From: a virus
Direction: 5' to 3' (one strand)
UHGV virus genome: UHGV-0342795
Length of the DNA: 43,959 nucleotides
The notes under the pieces are model-generated. The model ran no database searches. It saw nothing but the letters and a program-made list of their open reading frames with translations, and had not been told where the DNA came from. The position numbers and the translations under genes were made by a program. This document shows, piece after piece, positions 4,140 through 18,055 of the stretch; within the stretch, counting starts at the first letter, position 1; every line of letters starts with the position of its first letter.

Positions 4140-5411
4140 TTACTTAGAGCTCGCTTCCATCAGACTCAGGACTTCAATGAGAGGCCAATGGCCCTTGTAG
4201 TCCGTCTTATAGGGCTGGTCATAAATGACCTTGCGCACCCCAAGGTGGTTGAGAAGCTTCAGGCATGCGTCGCATGGCCCATGCGTCACGTACACTACAG
4301 CGTTGCTCCAGTCTGAGAATCCGTTCTGGAGAGCCTTTATGCAAGCCCTCATTTCAGCGTGAACGGAGTAGCAACCGTCGCTGTAGAACACTTCCTTTTT
4401 GTCCCTTGCGCATTCAGTGCAAGCCTCCCCGTCCCGGTCTCCGTACCCCGTTGCGATGACTTCTCCACGTGAGATAATCACAGCCCCACACTTCTTTTTT
4501 AAGCAACGGGACTGCTTGGAGGCCTCCCATGCCACGTTCATATTCAGATTATGATTGCGCCAATCGAATAACCCGATAAAACGTTGCACAAAAGCTCCAA
4601 TTGTCAAACGCTGAATAGCGGCTTGGGGGCACGACACCAACGGCTGTGCAACATCAAGGTTCTCGTTGGTGAATCTCTTTTCGCAATCCCTGAACTTGTC
4701 AAACGCCCATTCATAGAAGTGCAAGTTGAGGGCTTGATGGATGTGATAGCCTAATCCAAGGTTAGGATACGTTCTTTTAAGCATTGCGAGCGCAGTGTAA
4801 TGCACGACCCTGAAGAAAGGCAAGTCATACGGCAGACCGTACCAAAGGTCATTGGATCGCATGATGACTTGCATGTTGAGCGCATCACCTTGAATGTACA
4901 GGTTGATGATCAATGTGCAAGGATTATCGTTGCTGATGTAGGCATGTTCCTTGGAGTACAGCGTCATCACAGCCTTTTTGGAATCAGGGTTGTTACGCAA
5001 GCAATTGATTGCGTGCTCGAACTGAGTAAAACCATGCTTATTCTCGTCATGGAACAGAAGGAACCCATAGTTGCTGTTGATGGTTTTTCCGTCGTCGGAG
5101 CACTTGCTCCAGAACTTGCTCATCTTTACAGCGTCTTCCAATTGACGAGATCCGCTCGCGTAAAAGTCCAGTTCCTTCTCAAGGTACTCCTGAGAGGGAT
5201 ACCGTCCAAGGCAATACGTAGAAGCCTCCGGGTCGAGCACCAACGTTACGTTGCGCATTTCGTAGAGCCCTTGACCCTTGCGGTTAACAGTGTGCCGACC
5301 GTTCTTATGGATGTAATAGAAGATATCCAAGAAAGGCACGCACTGTCCTTTCTTTACGTTAAAGGTAGTGAACACAGGGTATTCGTTAGTTCCAAGTTGA
5401 GGGGTATCCAT
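4140..5411 (-). CDS. Fusion protein with an N-terminal thymidylate-synthase-fold domain (pyrimidine C5-modifying enzyme, Asp at the TS Asn177 position) and a C-terminal dCMP/cytidine-deaminase domain
   Basis: The TS core aligns without gaps to E. coli ThyA 144-181. NPCTLIINLYIQGDALNMQVIMRSNDLWYGLPYDLPFF aligns with [38 protein letters not shown], conserving the catalytic Cys, R166, S167 and D169, with D in place of N177. The C-terminal 120 aa carry the CDA zinc motifs HAEMRA and PCDAC (VVYVTHGPCDACLKLL). AAAGGA lies upstream of the ATG. Confidence 0.8.
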   Translation of the reverse strand: MDTPQLGTNEYPVFTTFNVKKGQCVPFLDIFYYIHKNGRHTVNRKGQGLYEMRNVTLVLDPEASTYCLGRYPSQEYLEKELDFYASGSRQLEDAVKMSKFWSKCSDDGKTINSNYGFLLFHDENKHGFTQFEHAINCLRNNPDSKKAVMTLYSKEHAYISNDNPCTLIINLYIQGDALNMQVIMRSNDLWYGLPYDLPFFRVVHYTALAMLKRTYPNLGLGYHIHQALNLHFYEWAFDKFRDCEKRFTNENLDVAQPLVSCPQAAIQRLTIGAFVQRFIGLFDWRNHNLNMNVAWEASKQSRCLKKKCGAVIISRGEVIATGYGDRDGEACTECARDKKEVFYSDGCYSVHAEMRACIKALQNGFSDWSNAVVYVTHGPCDACLKLLNHLGVRKVIYDQPYKTDYKGHWPLIEVLSLMEASSK

Positions 5412-11010: not shown

Positions 11011-11606
11011 TACTTGCTCCTTTTGATTGTGGTATTGTAGTAGGTGAACGCGGATACGCACTTGGGAAGATCCTGCAGAGCAATATGGGAATCCCCGTCA
11101 AACGACGGGTTTTGCTCGTTAAGCAAACAAAGGTTCTTGATGTACGCCTTCAGAGTCATGGGGTGAACGGTCTGCTTGATGTCCGGGTAAAGGTCGAGGT
11201 TGTCCACCAACAGCTTCTTGATCTTGCGCAGGATGCTGGCATCCATCTTGCCGAGCTCCATTTGCGTCTTGAGGATGTTGGATTCACCCCGTTCGTCAAG
11301 GAACTTAGCAAACGCCTCCATGTCCGTAATAGTAGGCGACACGTCCATCTTGACCTGCACCTTCTCGCCCGAAGGAAGTTTAATCTCGGACAAGCCGTTC
11401 TGCATGAGCAGGTTGGGAATAAGCTCTTTGGAGGTCTTGTAGAACGCGGCCTTGGCTTGCGAAAGCTGTTCTTCCAAGGAGTCTACCGTATCCTTCTGGT
11501 TCTTGTACAGCTCCACCAACGCCTTGAGCTTGGCAAGGGAATCCTGCTCGGGAGCCTGATTAGATACCTCGTCCAGCGTTTCCATCAAATAATCAAAGTC
11601 ACCCAT
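11010..11606 (-). CDS. Hypothetical protein (198 aa)
   Basis: The ATG is preceded by AGGAGA. The protein is helical and charged, and no motif was recognised. Confidence 0.5.
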   Translation of the reverse strand: MGDFDYLMETLDEVSNQAPEQDSLAKLKALVELYKNQKDTVDSLEEQLSQAKAAFYKTSKELIPNLLMQNGLSEIKLPSGEKVQVKMDVSPTITDMEAFAKFLDERGESNILKTQMELGKMDASILRKIKKLLVDNLDLYPDIKQTVHPMTLKAYIKNLCLLNEQNPSFDGDSHIALQDLPKCVSAFTYYNTTIKRSK

Positions 11607-11624
11607 GATGCGTCTCCTTAGTGG

Positions 11625-12101
11625 TTAGTTGTTTAAGAATCCGAAAACGATCTCGGTAACGTGCATTCCTTCTTCCGTTACCCAGACGCCACCCTGCTCA
11701 TCCCTCACTGCCAAGGGCATGACAATAAGGTTCTTACGGTCAATCCTGACTACGGCATGGTACTTGCCCTCCTTTGTGATGCGCTTGCTTGCCGAAGCCG
11801 AAGGCGGGAATGCCTTGATGAGTTGCTTGCGACTGCCGTCATGGTACAGCTTGAGACCTTCCGAGGAAGGAACAGCCCAAACATCAATCTCGGCATACAG
11901 CTTGTAAAGAGGATGCTCAGCGCACTGCTCCAGCACGAAGTCATGAAGTGAACCCTGCATGACGAAGACAGACTTCAAATAGTCCTCTTCCCACGCAACG
12001 GCGTAGTTGCCACAAAGGTAGGTTTCTTCAACCTGTGCTCCATTGGCAACGGCAGGAGTAGCGAAGAGCAGACCAGTCAACATGAGCGCGGGGATGTTCA
12101 T
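11625..12101 (-). CDS. Secreted/periplasmic protein with cleavable signal peptide
   Basis: The N-terminus MNIPALMLTGLLFATPAVANG fits a signal peptide with n-region, h-region and an AxA cleavage site. The ATG overlaps the SNF2 stop as ATGA, and TGGAG lies upstream. Confidence 0.55.
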   Translation of the reverse strand: MNIPALMLTGLLFATPAVANGAQVEETYLCGNYAVAWEEDYLKSVFVMQGSLHDFVLEQCAEHPLYKLYAEIDVWAVPSSEGLKLYHDGSRKQLIKAFPPSASASKRITKEGKYHAVVRIDRKNLIVMPLAVRDEQGGVWVTEEGMHVTEIVFGFLNN

Positions 12102-13693
12102 ATTAACTCCAGAATGTCGTTGAGGTTGCTGGACATGAAGAAGTCGTTAAGGCTTCTCCCTTCCTTGTTGGACTGAAGAACCTTCTTCTCAAAGTTCACG
12201 TTGTACACAAGGTCGATATAGACCGCAGTCTTGTCGCTACCAATACGACTACTGCGTCCTTCCGCTTGCAGTCGGTTCTCGGTATTGTAATCACGAGAAT
12301 ACCAGATCTGCAATGCGGCTCCCTGAAGATTGAGGCCGTAGCCAGCAACTGCCGGATTACAAACGATGCACTGAACACTTCCTTCCTTGAACTGAGATAC
12401 TACTTCCCTACGTTCATCGTCTGGTACCGCACCATACAACATGGCACAAGAGACGTGCTTGCTGAGAGCTTCATGAAGCATGACGATCTCCTTGGTGAAT
12501 ACCGCGAAGACAAGGAACTGAGCGTCCCCTATCTCGTCCAGCATCTCCATGATGTAATCCAGCTTGGCGTTCTTGCAATCAATGGCTACGCTCTTGTCTT
12601 CTTGACCGCCCTTGATGACCGGATTGAAAAAGCCGCCGCATATCTGCAAAGCCTTTGAACCGATTGAAACCTTGCTCTGAAGGGTCATCATGGTTCCTTG
12701 ATACATCGCAACGGCAAACTCCTTGAGCTGCTCAAGGAGAGCCTTCTGGACAGGTTCCAGCTTGAATTCAACCGTTCGGTATGTCTTCGGCGGGAGCTTT
12801 ACATCGTCGTTTGGATCGGTGAATACAGTGTAAGGTTCTACCCGCGCCTTCAATACGTCCACGTTCTTGTATGGCGTATACTTCGGCGTCATGATGATAA
12901 ACCGCACATCATCCGGCGCAAGGTTGAGCGTCTGAGCCAGTGAGAAGATATCATTCTGGCTCTTGTGGGAAGCTTCCCAAAGACGCTTGACGCGCTTCCA
13001 AAGGAACTCGTCAATCTCCTGGATCTTAGTCACCTTGCGTCCGCCCTTGATCTCAAACGTCTTTTGCATAAGAACGGTGTACTCGCTCTTAAACGACATG
13101 AAGGACTGGTTTATGATCTTTGGGCTCATGAAGTAGAACAACGACCACACGTCCACCACGCGCTTGGCAAGCGCAGTGCCAGTAAGAATCAGGGCTGGCC
13201 CTCCACACCAGTTGCGAACCATGTAGAGCTTCTTCGTTCTCTTAGTAGTGGGCGTCTTAATACGAGTGGCCTCGTCAAGCACGATCATGGTACGCCCTGA
13301 AACAATGAACTTGTCCAGAGCCCAATCCGCAGTATCGTGGGAAAAAGCGTCCACGTGCACAGCCAAAACCTTGAGTCCGTCAAACTGACTGCGCAAGAAC
13401 CCAAGCAACTGCGCCTGATACGCCTTTGTCTTGGTAGAAAGGAACGCCATTGCGTTGTACGGAACAGGGCAATGCGTGGGCAACTGTTCGTCAACCCATT
13501 GCGTGTGAACCAGATTGGGAGCCACTACCAGCACCCGATCGATCTCACCCTTAAGGTACTTGTGCGCCATGATGTCGATTGCGACCTTGGTCTTGCCTCG
13601 TCCCATTGTGAGGAACAACGCGCCGTTACGCAAGTCCTTCAGCTTGTCAAAAGCCTTCTGTTGGTATGGAAGGGGCTCAGTTAAGAACTGCAT
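12098..13693 (-). CDS. SNF2/DEAD-like superfamily-2 helicase
   Basis: Motif I is LTMGRGKTKVAI and motif II is VLDEATRIK. Motif VI is QAEGRSSRIGSDKT. The start is taken at the ATG 13693-13691, which has AGGAGA upstream. The listed ORF starts 18 codons earlier. Confidence 0.8.
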   Translation of the reverse strand: MQFLTEPLPYQQKAFDKLKDLRNGALFLTMGRGKTKVAIDIMAHKYLKGEIDRVLVVAPNLVHTQWVDEQLPTHCPVPYNAMAFLSTKTKAYQAQLLGFLRSQFDGLKVLAVHVDAFSHDTADWALDKFIVSGRTMIVLDEATRIKTPTTKRTKKLYMVRNWCGGPALILTGTALAKRVVDVWSLFYFMSPKIINQSFMSFKSEYTVLMQKTFEIKGGRKVTKIQEIDEFLWKRVKRLWEASHKSQNDIFSLAQTLNLAPDDVRFIIMTPKYTPYKNVDVLKARVEPYTVFTDPNDDVKLPPKTYRTVEFKLEPVQKALLEQLKEFAVAMYQGTMMTLQSKVSIGSKALQICGGFFNPVIKGGQEDKSVAIDCKNAKLDYIMEMLDEIGDAQFLVFAVFTKEIVMLHEALSKHVSCAMLYGAVPDDERREVVSQFKEGSVQCIVCNPAVAGYGLNLQGAALQIWYSRDYNTENRLQAEGRSSRIGSDKTAVYIDLVYNVNFEKKVLQSNKEGRSLNDFFMSSNLNDILELI

Positions 13694-13916
13694 CAGCGTC
13701 TCCTGTTGTGATCCCAGCTTCGCGCTGAACAAAACGAACGACCTCACGGTGAGGAATCAAAGGTCGTCCTGCCTTGCGCATGCACTGGATATGCTTCTTG
13801 TGTTCAGGATGGTTTACAAGGTAAGAGATACGAGAAGCGTCCTTACCCACCAGACGCGCGAATTGCGTCACAGTGTAGTACGGAACGCCCTCAAGCATCA
13901 ATGGCGAGTCTTTCAT
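13677..13916 (-). CDS. Small putative DNA-binding protein (79 aa)
   Basis: The ATG is preceded by GAGGGA. The segment YYTVTQFARLVGKDASRISYLV looks like a helix-turn-helix. Confidence 0.45.
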   Translation of the reverse strand: MKDSPLMLEGVPYYTVTQFARLVGKDASRISYLVNHPEHKKHIQCMRKAGRPLIPHREVVRFVQREAGITTGDADAVLN

Positions 13917-14416: not shown

Positions 14417-15193
14417 TCACTTACGGAACTGCGAAAACCGGATAGTTACGTCCTTATACATGCGTCCCGTGAGCGGATTGGTTTTGTCCTTGAGCATAAC
14501 ACAAGACGGGAACTTGTTGCGTAACAGCACCGCCGCCTTAACCCGAAGGTCATCGTCACGGTAAAGGTTACAACCTGAGTTCGTACCCGCTCCAAGTTGA
14601 TCGTCAGCAGTGAACAGGTTCAGCGTAGCCGTCCTGTAGCCAGCCTTCATCAGTTGGAGTTGCATGTGAAAGTCCTCAAGGATGTCCCCTTCCCATTCGT
14701 AACGGAAGCCTTCTCCCGACAGCGTGGGCAGGTGCAGGACTGGCGTCCACATGATGCGCTTGTTAATGCCCCACGTCTTTGTTTCAGTGTGGGCGAACAT
14801 GCGATGACGCAAGCCTATCATGGGGAACTCCGAACTTACGTTTTCGAACACAGGTCTAAGCGCGTTGTCTATGCTGACGGGATGGAGCTTTTCGAGCTTG
14901 TTGCCGTTGCGATAGGCAAACGCCAGATCGTCATCGAAGATGCCGAGCTTTTCAACGTCCCGAACGTAAGCCTCTTCCATGATGATGTCCCGAATGCGAG
15001 ACACCTTGTTAGCAGTATGCAACATGAGCCTTACGTTGAACGCTTTAGCTACAGGCTTGTACGCTTCAGCTTCATCCTTGTGCACCCAAAGGGATACAGG
15101 GTAATGAGAATGCTGGAGCCACGTGAGCGTCAGTTGCCTGTTCAGCAGAACGTCTGCCCTTCCCCGGCTCAGTACGGCGAGTTCATACTTCAT
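14417..15193 (-). CDS. GT-A fold (GT2-like) glycosyltransferase, soluble
   Basis: An Asp-rich DxD-like segment (LGIFDDDLAF) lies at about residue 90. WEGDILEDFHMQLQLMKAGYRTATL matches the GT2 'ED.D..LRL..AGY+' catalytic-loop motif. AGGAGA lies upstream of the ATG, and no TM segments are seen. Confidence 0.5.
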   Translation of the reverse strand: MKYELAVLSRGRADVLLNRQLTLTWLQHSHYPVSLWVHKDEAEAYKPVAKAFNVRLMLHTANKVSRIRDIIMEEAYVRDVEKLGIFDDDLAFAYRNGNKLEKLHPVSIDNALRPVFENVSSEFPMIGLRHRMFAHTETKTWGINKRIMWTPVLHLPTLSGEGFRYEWEGDILEDFHMQLQLMKAGYRTATLNLFTADDQLGAGTNSGCNLYRDDDLRVKAAVLLRNKFPSCVMLKDKTNPLTGRMYKDVTIRFSQFRK

Positions 15194-15201
15194 ATCGTCT
15201 C

Positions 15202-16455
15202 CTAGAACATTTGACTTTCAATGAAACTGCGACGCATGGTGCATTCATAAGCCGTCTTGTCATGGCGGAAGCCTGTTACCCAGTTCGCCTTGGCATGATA
15301 AATGCGCTGGTTCCTTGCGCTGATATCCTGACCGTCAATGGTAAGGACTTGCCCGTAAAACTCAGTCTTGAGTGCGGGCTTGCCGTCCCGTACTTCACTG
15401 AGAGCCATACGCGTTTGCAATGGAATGCCGCTCACGGTAGCCAGCCAATGGACTCCAAGCTGTTCATTGTTGTCTCCCAACAAATAAACGCCGAGTGTGA
15501 TGCCAGCAATGAGCCCCGCCTTATCCCATTCACCGCCGTTGGTGTAGCCTATGACGAATGCGTCAATGTCTGTCTGACTAGCCATGGACATACTCCTCTT
15601 CAGTTTGATGGTGGAGTTCTTGTCACGGAAGTTGCCAATAGCCGGAATGTAGAACGAGCTCAGGTTCTTGAGAACTACACCTTCCTCACCGTTGGCAACC
15701 AGTGATTCAAAGTAGGTCTTCTTGCCCCGCTCCCATTGCTTGGGAAGGCGTACGGAACGATCGAGCATGGGCATGCCTTGCATGAGCTCAAGCCTTTCCC
15801 TGAAGGGAATCTCCGTGATGATCTTCTCACGTTCAATGGGAAGGAAGTCGAACGCCACCAGCTCCATGGGAGCCGTAGTGCGTTGCGCAAGGTGGCTGTC
15901 ATGCACGTTAAGCTGAAGCATAGACGTTACAGCGTTCAAGCCCTTCCCGGTGAAGTTGCCGTCATTGAGCTCCACGAACCCGTCAGTGACCAGTTCGCAG
16001 TCCAATATGAACTCTTCCTTCCAATGACCAGCGAACTCCTTGAGCGTGCTCAGCTTGCCGTTGAGCGGAACAAGAAGCTTTTCAGTGTACTCCACCGGAA
16101 GCAGGGTAACAGTCGAGCGATTACGCCCAAAGGCTGAAAAGCCCTCATCGGGATGGTAGACCAGAACCATGCGGCAACCATCGAACTTCTCTTCGGCTAC
16201 CCAACCATTGCCGTCGGAAATGACGGCCTCCTGCTCGTCCTGCTTGAGCTGGTCATAACGGTAAGCCAACTGAACGTCATGCAACTGATCACGCATGACG
16301 CGACCGAAGGTGATCTCCCGCTGTTCACGATAGTGTTCAGCGATGACCGCCTCCAAGTCCCTGTTCAGGATCTTGCCGTTCTTACCCGTCCCTTCATACG
16401 GAACACGCAATCCGAGCTCTTCGATTCTGTTGCACAACTGCGTAAACGTAGCCAT
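15202..16455 (-). CDS. ATP-dependent DNA ligase
   Basis: Nucleotidyltransferase motif I (KxDG) is AEEKFDGCRMVLVY. Motif IV/V-like EGVVLK is present. The start is taken at the ATG 16455-16453, which has GGAGG upstream. The ORF track's start is a TTG four codons earlier. The ATG overlaps the upstream stop as TAATG. Confidence 0.85.
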   Translation of the reverse strand: MATFTQLCNRIEELGLRVPYEGTGKNGKILNRDLEAVIAEHYREQREITFGRVMRDQLHDVQLAYRYDQLKQDEQEAVISDGNGWVAEEKFDGCRMVLVYHPDEGFSAFGRNRSTVTLLPVEYTEKLLVPLNGKLSTLKEFAGHWKEEFILDCELVTDGFVELNDGNFTGKGLNAVTSMLQLNVHDSHLAQRTTAPMELVAFDFLPIEREKIITEIPFRERLELMQGMPMLDRSVRLPKQWERGKKTYFESLVANGEEGVVLKNLSSFYIPAIGNFRDKNSTIKLKRSMSMASQTDIDAFVIGYTNGGEWDKAGLIAGITLGVYLLGDNNEQLGVHWLATVSGIPLQTRMALSEVRDGKPALKTEFYGQVLTIDGQDISARNQRIYHAKANWVTGFRHDKTAYECTMRRSFIESQMF

Positions 16456-17396
16456 TAGAACCTCCAAGCACTCGGAATGTAAGGTTGCTCCAAGGGAGAG
16501 AGGATGCGACTGAAGTTGTTCTTAATGCTCTTGCCGTCATCACGCACCCGACAATACTTGTCGTATTCGCAGAACAGGTTCTGCATGTCATTGCCACGGA
16601 GTGGGAACTCCTTGCCGTCTACAGTGAGGACAGGGAAGGACGGAATGCCGTTAATCGCAAGCCGCTTGAGCACGCTAGGCAGTTCAATCAGCTTAAGATG
16701 AGGCCAAACCCGTCTCATCCCGCGCTGGCACCCAATCCCCGGAACGATGAACTTCTCGTAGTCAAACATTAAATGGTTGTAAGAGAAGTCCAAAGCGAAC
16801 TGGTAAGCCAAGAAGTCCCCAAACCCCTCATGACGGCGGAAGATTGCGTAGGTGTAGCTCATGTCTGAAGAGTTGTAAGCCCTCTCCAGATCACCGCTGT
16901 CTTCCATGTGCTTCAGCGTCCTGAGGAACAGCTCCGTCCTTGTGGTGCAACCGAACGTCCACGGCGGAGTCATCATGTAAGCGTTGTTGTATACCGTAAC
17001 CCCGCAAGCGCGACGTGCTTCAACGAAGCTCTCAATGGCAGGAAGCGCGTTGTACGCATCGTACTTGTAATCCGGAAGGGATTCCCATGTCTCAATGCTG
17101 TTGAACAACCTGAACAGGAACATGCCCATGCGATGAGCGCGAGGGAGCTCAAAGCAATTCGCCTTGTCGTCAATGATGTTCTTCGCCATGTACTGCGAAA
17201 CACGATCAAGGATTCGGTAGGCGTTGGTGAACTTCCACTTGTCAAGGATAGGATCCTCGGACACCAGCGCAGTCCCATTGACACGTGCGAGGAACCGCTC
17301 TTGCCTACGAATAGCGAACCCGTAAAAGTCCACCAGTCGCTTACTGGTAGGCAGGTGCGGAGCCACCGGAAGGTCGTTAGCCTTGAACCAATCCAT
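16455..17396 (-). CDS. Hypothetical protein (313 aa), no recognised motif
   Basis: The start is taken at the ATG 17396 (AAAGGA upstream); the track start is a TTG. Conserved-looking segments are KWKFTNAYRILDR and HEGFGDFLAYQFALDF. It is embedded between the ligase and the HD hydrolase. Confidence 0.55.
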   Translation of the reverse strand: MDWFKANDLPVAPHLPTSKRLVDFYGFAIRRQERFLARVNGTALVSEDPILDKWKFTNAYRILDRVSQYMAKNIIDDKANCFELPRAHRMGMFLFRLFNSIETWESLPDYKYDAYNALPAIESFVEARRACGVTVYNNAYMMTPPWTFGCTTRTELFLRTLKHMEDSGDLERAYNSSDMSYTYAIFRRHEGFGDFLAYQFALDFSYNHLMFDYEKFIVPGIGCQRGMRRVWPHLKLIELPSVLKRLAINGIPSFPVLTVDGKEFPLRGNDMQNLFCEYDKYCRVRDDGKSIKNNFSRILSPLEQPYIPSAWRF

Positions 17397-17398
17397 GC

Positions 17399-18055
17399 TC
17401 AATCCTTTATGTTAAGCTCTTCGAACGCCTCGAAGAGGTTGGTGTACACCATGTCATCGGACATGGGATTCAACAAGGAGTAGACCCGCTTGTCATACTG
17501 GGACGCATCCCACTCGGGCTCACCAAAGAAGAACGAGCACTCCATGAAGCCAAGCGCGTCATCCGCCTTCGTAACAGCCAGATCAGGTGTCGCGTTGTAC
17601 TTGTCAAAGATCGCACGCTGAATCCTGTCTTCGCACTGAAGATACTCATAAGCGCACTTGAACGCCTCCCGGTTGCCTTCCTCAGCGACGTCCATGTATA
17701 CCTTGACAGCTCGTCTCACCGCCGTAACAATGTGGTTCTTCATGGGACGGATGATGTCCCCTGTGTACGCCTCCACCGCGTCATGCAACAGAACGGCTCT
17801 CAGGATGTCCGGAGCGGTGATACCTATGACATGCTTGGCATACGCCAGCGTAGCCAATGAATGCTGCCCCACACTATAATGGTAGGGGGTCGCGCCGTTG
17901 AAACGGCAGATGTGCGACAAGCTGTTGGCAATGTGCGCAAGGCTCAGGTTCGGTCCAAAGATCGCGTTCTCCGGATCATGGGTAGGCAAAGCCCAAAGGT
18001 TGAGTCTTACGCGTTCAGTTGTAAAGACACCGGGATAACAAGGTTGCTGGCTCAT
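17399..18055 (-). CDS. HD-domain phosphohydrolase (YfbR-like 5'-deoxynucleotidase family)
   Basis: The H...HD...D motif is H(SLATLAYAK)H ... LLHDAVEAYTGD. AGGAGA lies upstream of the ATG. Confidence 0.75.
   Translation of the reverse strand: MSQQPCYPGVFTTERVRLNLWALPTHDPENAIFGPNLSLAHIANSLSHICRFNGATPYHYSVGQHSLATLAYAKHVIGITAPDILRAVLLHDAVEAYTGDIIRPMKNHIVTAVRRAVKVYMDVAEEGNREAFKCAYEYLQCEDRIQRAIFDKYNATPDLAVTKADDALGFMECSFFFGEPEWDASQYDKRVYSLLNPMSDDMVYTNLFEAFEELNIKD

Follow-up and report, generated by a model that had tools for sequence, protein, structure and literature searches.

A predicted hydroxymethyl-pyrimidine glycosylation gene set in a Pam3-like phage, with a thymidylate synthase-fold/deaminase fusion, a TAGT glycosyltransferase and a PF18723 protein

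The virus genome UHGV-0342795 was analysed over its whole stretch of 43,959 nucleotides (hereafter the window; G+C content, 51%), with attention to a group of replication-arm genes that a preliminary description, made from the sequence alone, had proposed as a DNA hypermodification set. Many near-identical contigs of 42-44 kb occur in public assemblies, the phage being abundant in public metagenomes, and the window is therefore essentially one complete genome of about 44 kb, that of a Pam3-like small myophage. A megablast search with positions 14417-18055 against 50,697 phage records gave no match, so that no near-identical cultured phage can serve as a reference. On the minus strand, from 18576 to 14417, tightly packed or overlapping open reading frames (ORFs) encode in this order an unassigned protein of 174 amino acids, an HD-domain protein, a PF18723 protein, a DNA ligase and a glycosyltransferase (Table 1). 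Neighbouring genes lie end to end or share a few bases, in keeping with a single leftward operon. On the same leftward replication arm, 9 kb further on and between the genes of a UvrD-type helicase and a family-A DNA polymerase, is a gene encoding a thymidylate synthase (TS)-fold domain fused to a deaminase domain. All five ORFs outlined in the preliminary description are present on the minus strand, and the strings that it quoted (FDDD, EDFHMQLQLMKAGYR, KWKFTNAYRILDR and HEGFGDFLAYQFALDF) are found in the sequence. For the glycosyltransferase, the PF18723 protein and both domains of the fusion, the family matches go well past chance. Relatives with 58-65% protein identity share these genes and their order, and on this ground the genes are considered real and selected. 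The unusual traits of the set are an Asp-type hydroxymethylase-deaminase fusion, the pairing of a TAGT glycosyltransferase with PF18723, and the absence of any kinase. We think it very probable that the set is a hydroxymethyl-pyrimidine glycosylation system for the phage DNA. The earlier interpretation, that a TS-family hydroxymethylase and, downstream of it, a soluble GT-A transferase serve to hypermodify pyrimidines, holds in outline, with three of its details corrected below.

Table 1. Positions in the window of the genes discussed in the text.
Feature	Position	Strand	Size and family assignment
TS-fold/deaminase fusion	4140..5411	-	423 aa; Pfam Thymidylat_synt + dCMP_cyt_deam_1
TAGT-family glycosyltransferase (PF20691), predicted GT-A	14417..15193	-	258 aa; Pfam, PHROG 842
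ATP-dependent DNA ligase	15202..16467	-	421 aa; Pfam DNA_ligase_A_M
PF18723 protein	16455..17402	-	315 aa from TTG, 313 aa from ATG at 17396
Putative HD-domain phosphohydrolase, YfbR-like / phage dNMP-phosphatase family	17399..18055	-	218 aa; PHROG 318

The glycosyltransferase matches the Pfam family TAGT with 53.9 bits against a cut-off of 27.5 (E 2.9e-14; profile positions 1-193 of 205), and PHROG 842, 'beta-glucosyl-HMC-alpha-glucosyltransferase', with E 7.8e-23, an annotation used for the second glucosyltransferase of T2/T6. It displays the metal/nucleotide-sugar motif DDD(L)xF and the motifs (M/L)EDF and GGC(S/N)xYR; columns D87-D88-D89, L90, F92, D174, G207, C208 and R212 show little or no variation among 16 divergent members. 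No hydrophobic or transmembrane segment was detected by a Kyte-Doolittle scan (maximal 19-residue mean, 0.84), in agreement with the earlier remark that the enzyme is soluble and lacks a membrane anchor. A word-indexed homologue search retrieved only seven proteins. An AlphaFold2 model built on a 6-sequence alignment averaged pLDDT 58 and had some confidence only in its N-terminal part, of alternating beta/alpha structure. These features lead us to predict a soluble GT-A DNA glycosyltransferase of the TAGT family. The preliminary description had allowed for a closest homology to lipid or lipopolysaccharide glycosyltransferases; the specific match, in Pfam as in PHROG, is to TAGT instead. It had also taken the GT-A fold as a sign of an undescribed pathway. 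This argument has to be abandoned, since the second glucosyltransferase of T2/T6 is also a TAGT enzyme (as stated for T6 in PMC13390438) and since GT-A DNA glycosyltransferases have already been surveyed in viromes, where they are associated with TS homologues and dCMP deaminase is a frequent neighbour (bioRxiv 10.1101/2023.12.21.572611).

The protein encoded on the other side of the ligase gene, said at first to carry no recognisable motif, matches PF18723, a family with links to 5-hydroxymethyl-pyrimidine pathways, along its entire length (170.1 bits, cut-off 25, E 8.7e-50; residues 23-287 on profile positions 4-275 of 281). Its shorter form, from the ATG, agrees in length with homologues of 313 aa. 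A homologue search retrieved at least 750 proteins, all of PF18723, which Pfam names 'HMUDK_hel' and formerly aGPT-Pplase clade 1; one homologue is also named 'alpha-glutamyl/putrescinyl thymine pyrophosphorylase clade 1', and M6 gp55, the equivalent in M6-like phages, belongs to the family. The window protein has no P-loop. Its AlphaFold2 model (50-sequence alignment, pLDDT 93.9) is all-helical and HhH-glycosylase-like, with a structural relationship to the amino-acid:DNA transferases (AADT), and PF18723 is, judging from this model, a structural paralogue of these cysteine-dependent enzymes; in Foldseek and sequence-profile searches the relationship stayed below significance. Amino-acid:DNA transferase flips its target base into a pocket, where Cys247 attacks C6 and a metal is bound via Glu243 and Thr244 (PMC11472151); the catalytic cysteine is essential (PMC13458397). 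The residues invariant in PF18723 are N60, R63, D66, D205, G222/G224/G228, D272, Q274, C278-E279 and K282. Because D272, Q274, C278, E279 and K282, together with D205, make up a separate invariant set, the former five in the C-terminal helix equivalent to that of the transferase, PF18723 may be catalytic rather than merely DNA-binding.

Members of PF18723 also occur outside phages. Five of them (P0041, P0062, P0073, P0089 and P0102) are encoded on Bacteroidota contigs of 2-7 Mb, mostly Mucilaginibacter/Pedobacter chromosomes and one Chitinophagaceae metagenome-assembled genome. The name that NCBI gives these proteins is 'nucleotide kinase domain-containing protein', despite the lack of a kinase fold in the family. 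The aGPT-Pplase domain is listed among predicted, unvalidated defence domains (PMC13092281).

Both domains reported earlier for the fusion protein are found by Pfam. The N-terminal TS-fold domain (about residues 27-250; Thymidylat_synt, E 7e-20) carries the catalytic Cys165 in 'NPCT' and Asp196 at the base-specificity position. The C-terminal deaminase domain (about residues 287-400; dCMP_cyt_deam_1, E 4e-16; 59.1 bits against a cut-off of 25 for PF00383) has an intact zinc-binding motif, HAE-x27-PCDAC (PCxxC). The closest solved structure to the TS domain is T4 dCMP hydroxymethylase (1b49, E 3.9e-12), ahead of the CMP hydroxymethylase MilA and of all true TS entries; the T4 D179N mutant is present among the PDB matches. 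In an ungapped alignment of the fusion (RSNDLWYGLPYD) with the T4 (RSNDVVFGFRND) and E. coli (RSCDVFLGLPFN) enzymes, D196 corresponds to T4 D179 and to E. coli N177, a position known as the cytosine/uracil switch. The domain also has the 'INSNYG' motif in common with the T4 enzyme. It is 34% identical to TS homologues of Lactobacillus phage ATCCB and Enterococcus phage VFW, 26% to T4 gp42 (E 6e-15) and 24.5% to the ThyA of the 5-methylcytosine (5mC) phage PaMx74 (E 7e-10), in which thyA (Asp-type) is directly followed by cd, the order of the two domains in the fusion. The protein thus combines the TS fold, the catalytic Cys and the Asp of dCMP hydroxymethylases of the T4 gp42 type, and lacks the Asn found at the specificity position in dUMP hydroxymethylases of the SPO1/M6 type, and also in the TS homologues of the M6-like Churro and of LuckyBarnes.

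The JGI annotation of the fusion, 'deoxycytidylate deaminase/thymidylate synthase', would imply an ordinary ThyA. This was rejected: the best NCBIfam ThyA model scores 51.5 bits against cut-offs of 108-427, and Asp196 stands in place of Asn. The C-terminal segment of TS is missing, the Pfam match stopping at profile position 224 of 266. From its sequence, the TS domain is best regarded as a cytosine-type enzyme and not a thymidylate synthase. It is likelier to be a hydroxymethylase than a methylase: its similarity to glycosyltransferase-linked enzymes and T4 gp42 exceeds that to the PaMx74 methylase, and a glycosyltransferase is encoded in the same genome. Among the 120 homologues of the fusion listed, down to 45% identity, all 120 have the two-domain architecture (TS N-terminal, deaminase C-terminal) and the 'YD' Asp. 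The 'NPCT' Cys motif is kept in the individually checked homologues except the two most distant, and a few of the more distant ones have no literal HAE; relative L106, among the contigs of 58-65% protein identity, keeps the fusion with Asp, Cys, HAE and PCxxC.

Another kind of extension was seen in a 'SGIN' subgroup of Asn-type TS homologues, which carry about 250 C-terminal residues without a Pfam match even at E = 1. Its members include L001:4822-6375 (+) (LuckyBarnes gp41) and similar ORFs in L017, L029, L036, L041, L054, L056, L064, L076 and L085. Hydroxymethylases fused to a second domain seem to recur.

The HD protein matches PHROG 318 (dNMP phosphatase) with E 7.9e-27, and its metal-ligand residues H...HD...D are visible in the sequence (QH..., LHD, TGD). 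Scores against Pfam HD, HD_3 and YfbR-like (20.2-21 bits) fall just under the cut-offs of 22-25.9, and the NCBIfam score is 17 bits against 122. The phosphatase assignment made earlier is weaker than the other family assignments, with the PHROG match and these residues in its favour; the depletion of a canonical nucleotide pool then attributed to the protein was only a guess, the family being widespread in phages, including lambdoid ones, and for the same reason the protein was dropped as evidence for thymine depletion. It is a candidate enzyme of nucleotide-pool remodelling.

Genes of several known modification pathways were also sought in the window. Searches by tblastn and hidden Markov models (HMMs) with the M6-like 5-hmdU DNA kinase and AADT found nothing there, and a Walker-A scan of all window ORFs of at least 70 aa returned only the UvrD helicase and the primase, hence no candidate kinase. 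In Pfam scans of the remaining window ORFs (to E 1), no dNMP kinase, dCTPase/dUTPase/MazG, DHFR or dioxygenase was detected; remote homologues are possible among 5-6 unassigned small ORFs. The T4 route to 5-hydroxymethylcytosine (5hmC) includes the dNMP kinase gp1 and the dCTPase gp56, and the window shows neither of these components of complete cytosine replacement.

Among relatives of the phage, L009 (58-65% protein identity) has the HD, PF18723, ligase and glycosyltransferase genes in the order of the window, and gene order is partly kept at 40-47% identity. The HD gene precedes PF18723 in L009 and L097, and in L110 it precedes the ligase gene. Both PF18723 and TAGT are present in L097 and L095. 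L110 has HD, ligase and SNF2 genes and neither PF18723 nor TAGT at the syntenic sites. From this varying gene content among the more distant members of the group, the fusion, usually with HD, is a stable core to which the glycosyltransferase and PF18723 are an add-on module. The ligase gene, between PF18723 and the glycosyltransferase gene in the window, occupies the same position in L009, L097, L016 and L110; its product presumably has a role in replication or repair rather than in modification chemistry.

Additional genes accompany the set in some relatives. In L111 (Logan SRR31341459_2466), which also encodes a TS(Asp)-deaminase fusion, the next gene downstream of TAGT is one for a radical-SAM/SPASM protein (L111:1851-2657 (+)), and a similar gene is found near PF18723 at L068:6060-7034 (+); these may perform extra tailoring steps on the modified base. 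L095 (ENA WALL22-1 scaffold_327) carries a PF00145 C5-cytosine DNA methyltransferase gene and a Lar-like restriction-alleviation gene between PF18723 and TAGT (11529-12431 (+) and 13441-13815 (+)).

The gene context of PF18723 and TAGT across viruses was studied in two independent censuses of IMG/VR loci (L012-L091 and L113-L191), using local ORF calling and HMMs made from Pfam-checked seed sequences. The first started from PF18723; its 80 loci, with those collected earlier, formed 54 non-redundant groups. A TS homologue was located within 8 kb in 42 of the 54 groups, usually immediately adjacent, and was of the Asn type ('RSNDxIWG...N') in 39/42, the Asp type being seen only in the window family and in Microbacterium phage Golden. 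Beside PF18723, TAGT was found in 14 groups, a P-loop kinase in 14 (from three Pfam families, HMUDK_HMUD1, HMUD2 and Ploopntkinase3) and AADT in 9. TAGT never co-occurred with a kinase or AADT (14 TAGT loci against 14 kinase loci), a mutual exclusion that suggests two alternative branches downstream of the hydroxymethylase. With a companion in only 14 of 54 groups, the kinase does not define the PF18723 family; a hidden 5-hmdU DNA kinase pathway, as the name of the family would imply, was discarded for the window, where no P-loop kinase or AADT was found. The second census started from the glycosyltransferase, and the 79 loci with its closest TAGT relatives gave 52 non-redundant groups. PF18723 was present in 46 of these and an Asn-type TS homologue in 44, the exceptions being mostly short contigs, and a kinase or AADT in none of the 52.

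Individual loci illustrate these associations. Genes for TS(Asn), TAGT, TAGT and PF18723 are consecutive in Brevibacterium phage LuckyBarnes, and one IMG/VR contig shows the series sugar epimerase, TAGT, PF18723, TS(Asn). An 837-aa ORF (L021:6420-8933 (+); IMGVR_UViG_3300010430_000064) joins Glycos_transf_1 (GT-B, residues 211-410) to PF18723 (518-798), 5 bp upstream of an Asn-type TS homologue, and is a Rosetta-stone style link of PF18723 to glycosyltransferases. In phage Golden (gp55 and gp47; L002:1353-1958 (+) and L002:4944-5750 (+)), an Asp-type TS homologue occurs with PF18723; the partner is a P-loop kinase of the Ploopntkinase3 family, with a MazG-like pyrophosphohydrolase nearby, which hints at a phosphorylation-based modification of 5hmC or a derivative. 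We conclude from gene context that PF18723 and the glycosyltransferase probably work together, in a 'glycosyl branch' alternative to the kinase/AADT branch. Because the TAGT/PF18723 pair is nearly always linked to Asn-type TS homologues, the usual precursor enzyme of this branch is predicted to be a dUMP hydroxymethylase, and the usual acceptor 5-hydroxymethyluracil (5hmU) in DNA. In the first census, 22 groups have no TAGT, kinase or AADT and may hide further tailoring enzymes.

The glycosyltransferase and PF18723 of the window therefore point to 5hmU while its hydroxymethylase is of the cytosine type. The fused deaminase resolves this conflict if dCMP is converted to 5hm-dCMP and then to a 5hm-dU nucleotide. 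That the fusion persists down to 45% identity points to consecutive reactions; with an Asp at the specificity site, deamination first would hand the hydroxymethylase the wrong substrate, so that the order would be hydroxymethylation, then deamination. Taking together the observations given above on family membership, catalytic motifs, gene context and co-occurrence, we infer a pathway in two stages, with proposed substrates, step order, sugar and PF18723 function. In the nucleotide pool, the TS domain would hydroxymethylate C5 of dCMP, Asp196 specifying cytosine, and the tethered deaminase domain would convert the 5-hydroxymethyl-dC nucleotide to a 5-hydroxymethyl-dU nucleotide. Host kinases, which suffice for 5hm-dUMP (PMC13458397), would supply the triphosphate for incorporation by the phage family-A polymerase, and 5hmU would replace thymine in the DNA, possibly with some 5hmC as well; the HD phosphohydrolase may degrade the competing canonical nucleotide. 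On the DNA, as family membership and gene context suggest, the TAGT enzyme would transfer a host nucleotide-sugar to the 5-hydroxymethyl group, producing a base-J-like glycosyl-5hmU. PF18723 would recognise and flip out, or activate, the hydroxymethyl-pyrimidine for a hydroxyl-derivatising enzyme, the glycosyltransferase here and a P-loop kinase in M6-like phages. DNA modified in this way would resist host restriction enzymes and possibly CRISPR nucleases. We give an even chance to this pathway, in which neither TAGT nor PF18723 has to change substrate. Of the phage dCMP-deaminase-family enzymes encoded beside Asp-type TS homologues, most of those that are active prefer 5-methyl-dCTP (5mdCTP) and/or 5-hydroxymethyl-dCTP (5hmdCTP). 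They turn 5hmdCTP into 5hmdUTP, and with seven of them 5hmdU entered E. coli DNA when 5hmdC nucleotides were given (bioRxiv 10.1101/2024.12.05.627091). By analogy with Xp12-type phages, where deamination reaches only part of the modified-cytosine pool, 5hmC and 5hmU could be present together in the DNA.

Several points weigh against glycosylated 5hmU. Sequence by itself does not separate a hydroxymethylase from a methylase, and the HD family, as said, is generic. L016 has PF18723 and no recognisable TAGT. A profile-profile comparison of the PF18723 and AADT alignments was not significant, so that their relationship is drawn from structure, and M6 gp55, the sole PF18723 member studied in an experiment, proved dispensable for modification in lysates (PMC8989533). 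The remaining points would fit a T-even-like pathway as well. In it, the Asp-type enzyme would make 5hm-dCMP, 5hmC would replace cytosine and be glycosylated by TAGT, the deaminase would feed dUMP to the host ThyA as T4 Cd does, and PF18723 and HD would be accessory or unrelated. T4 has analogues of the hydroxymethylase, the deaminase and the glucosyltransferase. Asp196 and the best PDB match agree with this scheme, as do the TS homologues of ATCCB and VFW, the nearest cultured relatives, which have the same Asp motif and adjoin T4-like beta-glucosyltransferases, suggesting glycosyl-5hmC. Phage Golden, with its Asp-type enzyme, PF18723 and kinase, indicates that PF18723 is not confined to 5hmU contexts. 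Characterised TAGT-family enzymes all act on cytosine derivatives (5hmC or glucosyl-5hmC), and phage dCMP-deaminase-family genes in cis to Asp-type TS homologues are strongly enriched in modified-cytosine contigs (bioRxiv 10.1101/2024.12.05.627091).

We nevertheless regard the T-even-like pathway as rather unlikely. No analogue of gp56 or gp1 was found in the window, whose only Walker-A motifs in ORFs of at least 70 aa are those of the helicase and the primase, and it is difficult to see why two enzymes competing for dCMP should be fused. The closest TAGT and PF18723 relatives are almost all tied to Asn-type hydroxymethylases, so both proteins would need a change of substrate. The C5-cytosine methyltransferase of L095 would moreover be useless on fully 5hmC DNA, a weak argument in that the part of L095 where a TS-deaminase gene would be expected lies beyond the flank covered.

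A pathway like that of Xp12/PaMx74 is improbable. The TS domain would then be a dCMP methyltransferase, 5mC would replace cytosine, the deaminase would turn 5m-dC into dT nucleotides, and TAGT/PF18723 would have another purpose. PaMx74 replaces cytosine entirely with 5mC (bioRxiv 10.1101/2024.12.05.627091), from which, and from its Asp motif, we take its TS-like enzyme for a dCMP methylase; this phage shares the 'GLPYD' Asp motif as well as the thyA-then-cd order with the fusion, and five of the seven deaminase-linked Asp-type TS homologues tested in the same study made 5mdCMP. The glycosyltransferase, however, would be left without a hydroxyl acceptor. No 5mC-hydroxylating dioxygenase was found in the window, and the search there for a DHFR gene, which PaMx74 has, was likewise negative. 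The TS domain is also closer to the glycosyltransferase-linked enzymes and T4 gp42 than to PaMx74 ThyA, and lacks a TS-like C-terminal segment. Least probable of all is a glycosyltransferase that acts elsewhere, for instance on a host surface glycan or a protein, its location among nucleotide-metabolism genes being incidental: GT-A enzymes are versatile and most virome GT-A contigs have no neighbouring base-modification gene (bioRxiv 10.1101/2023.12.21.572611), but the window enzyme has a specific TAGT match, no membrane anchor and a gene in a replication operon, 44-46 of the 52 non-redundant loci of its relatives also hold PF18723 and a TS homologue, and a glycosyltransferase-PF18723 fusion exists.

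Other genes of the window are those for an AEP primase, an SNF2 helicase, a ferritin-like protein, Pam3-type proteins, an amidase, a terminase, a portal protein and myovirus baseplate proteins; a tRNA scan of the window gave zero tRNA genes. The ferritin-like gene, for a ferritin/rubrerythrin-like di-iron protein (window:10354-10860 (-); Pfam Ferritin, E 1.5e-23), belongs to the replication arm and is kept in most relatives of the phage group, although it was not seen in L110 or L111. A segment of about 1.2 kb without a convincing long ORF (window:18577-19778) lies between the replication/modification operon, which runs leftward, and the lysis and structural genes, which run rightward; it is probably a divergent early/late control region, and promoter- and terminator-like sites around the operon were no commoner than in shuffled sequence. 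One near-identical copy of the phage lies within a 432-kb scaffold (L108; ENA ZHAN20-1 scaffold_5, 432,583 bp), with a HicA/HicB toxin-antitoxin pair inserted among its baseplate genes (L108:18962-19651 (+)).

The building blocks of the set belong to known families. A literature search found no description of a hydroxymethylase-deaminase fusion and no report of glycosylated 5hmU in phage DNA. Nor was the near-obligate TAGT-PF18723 pairing, or its exclusion of kinase/AADT, found described, in a search that did not cover Iyer et al. 2013, reportedly the computational paper that defined TAGT and aGPT-Pplase and one that may hold an earlier mention. We tentatively put forward, as a proposal somewhat short of an even bet, that this lineage makes a phage counterpart of base J via bifunctional dCMP hydroxymethylation-deamination, a precursor route so far undescribed, that PF18723 is a shared partner presenting or activating the hydroxymethyl base for glycosyltransferases or DNA kinases, and that the hydroxymethylase-PF18723-TAGT triad marks a widespread unrecognised 'glycosyl branch' of thymidine hypermodification. 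Phage DNA hypermodifications govern escape from restriction and CRISPR, and their enzymes are tools for epigenetic sequencing and DNA labelling. If the two-stage pathway favoured here is correct, glycosylated 5hmU, hitherto known from trypanosomatids as base J, would be widespread among phages. The triad is present in dozens of unrelated viral contigs. PF18723, with at least 750 proteins and no function since its first prediction, would gain a role as partner of hydroxymethyl-derivatising enzymes, and one bifunctional enzyme taking dCMP as far as a 5hm-dU nucleotide would offer a compact means of introducing 5hmU into DNA in vivo.

Among known systems, the glucosyl-5hmC pathway of T-even phages (T4 gp42, Cd, alpha/beta-glucosyltransferases) shares with the window an Asp-type TS-fold hydroxymethylase, a dCMP-deaminase-family enzyme and post-replicative glycosylation by a soluble phage glycosyltransferase, of the same Pfam/PHROG family as the second enzyme of T2/T6. 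In the window, however, hydroxymethylase and deaminase form one polypeptide, there is no gp56/gp1 analogue and no GT-B enzyme, and PF18723, which T-even phages lack, is present, in a context that points to a 5hmU rather than a 5hmC acceptor. The 5mC phages Xp12/PaMx74 also have an Asp-type TS homologue followed by a dCMP-deaminase-family enzyme, and obtain a thymine-like nucleotide by deaminating a C5-modified dC (bioRxiv 10.1101/2024.12.05.627091); their two genes are separate, the TS homologue is a methylase, DHFR is present and glycosyltransferase and PF18723 are absent, whereas the window has a fusion, probably of a hydroxymethylase, together with both of these proteins. In the 5mYOX/TET- and ThyS-associated GT-A pathways (PMC8256090; Pyle et al., bioRxiv 10.1101/2023.12.21.572611 / Cell Rep 2024), the same glycosyltransferase family acts after a hydroxymethyl-pyrimidine has been installed. 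The available parts of these surveys do not mention a PF18723 partner or a kinase, and their characterised examples are cytosine-based; the window pathway is TS-based with a fused deaminase. Thymidine hypermodification in M6/YuA, ViI, PaMx11, PhiW-14 and SH-Ab 15599 employs a dUMP hydroxymethylase, the 5-HMUDK kinase, AADT/aGPT-Pplase2 and tailoring enzymes (PMC5889632, PMC8989533, PMC13458397). As proposed here, a hydroxymethyl-pyrimidine is made before replication and its hydroxyl derivatised on DNA, and PF18723, an HD protein and a deaminase are present; the window differs by a glycosyltransferase in place of the P-loop kinase/AADT, and by a fused Asp-type hydroxymethylase in place of an Asn-type one with a separate deaminase. 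The predicted product, a glycosylated 5hmU, would be chemically analogous to base J, made in kinetoplastids by the JBP1/2 thymidine hydroxylases and JGT, an enzyme that phage GT-A DNA glycosyltransferases are reported to resemble in structure (bioRxiv 10.1101/2023.12.21.572611). In the phage, 5hmU would come from the nucleotide pool before replication and not from oxidation of thymine in DNA, no dioxygenase having been found in the window, and whereas base J accounts for about 1% of thymine, replacement in the phage would probably be genome-wide.

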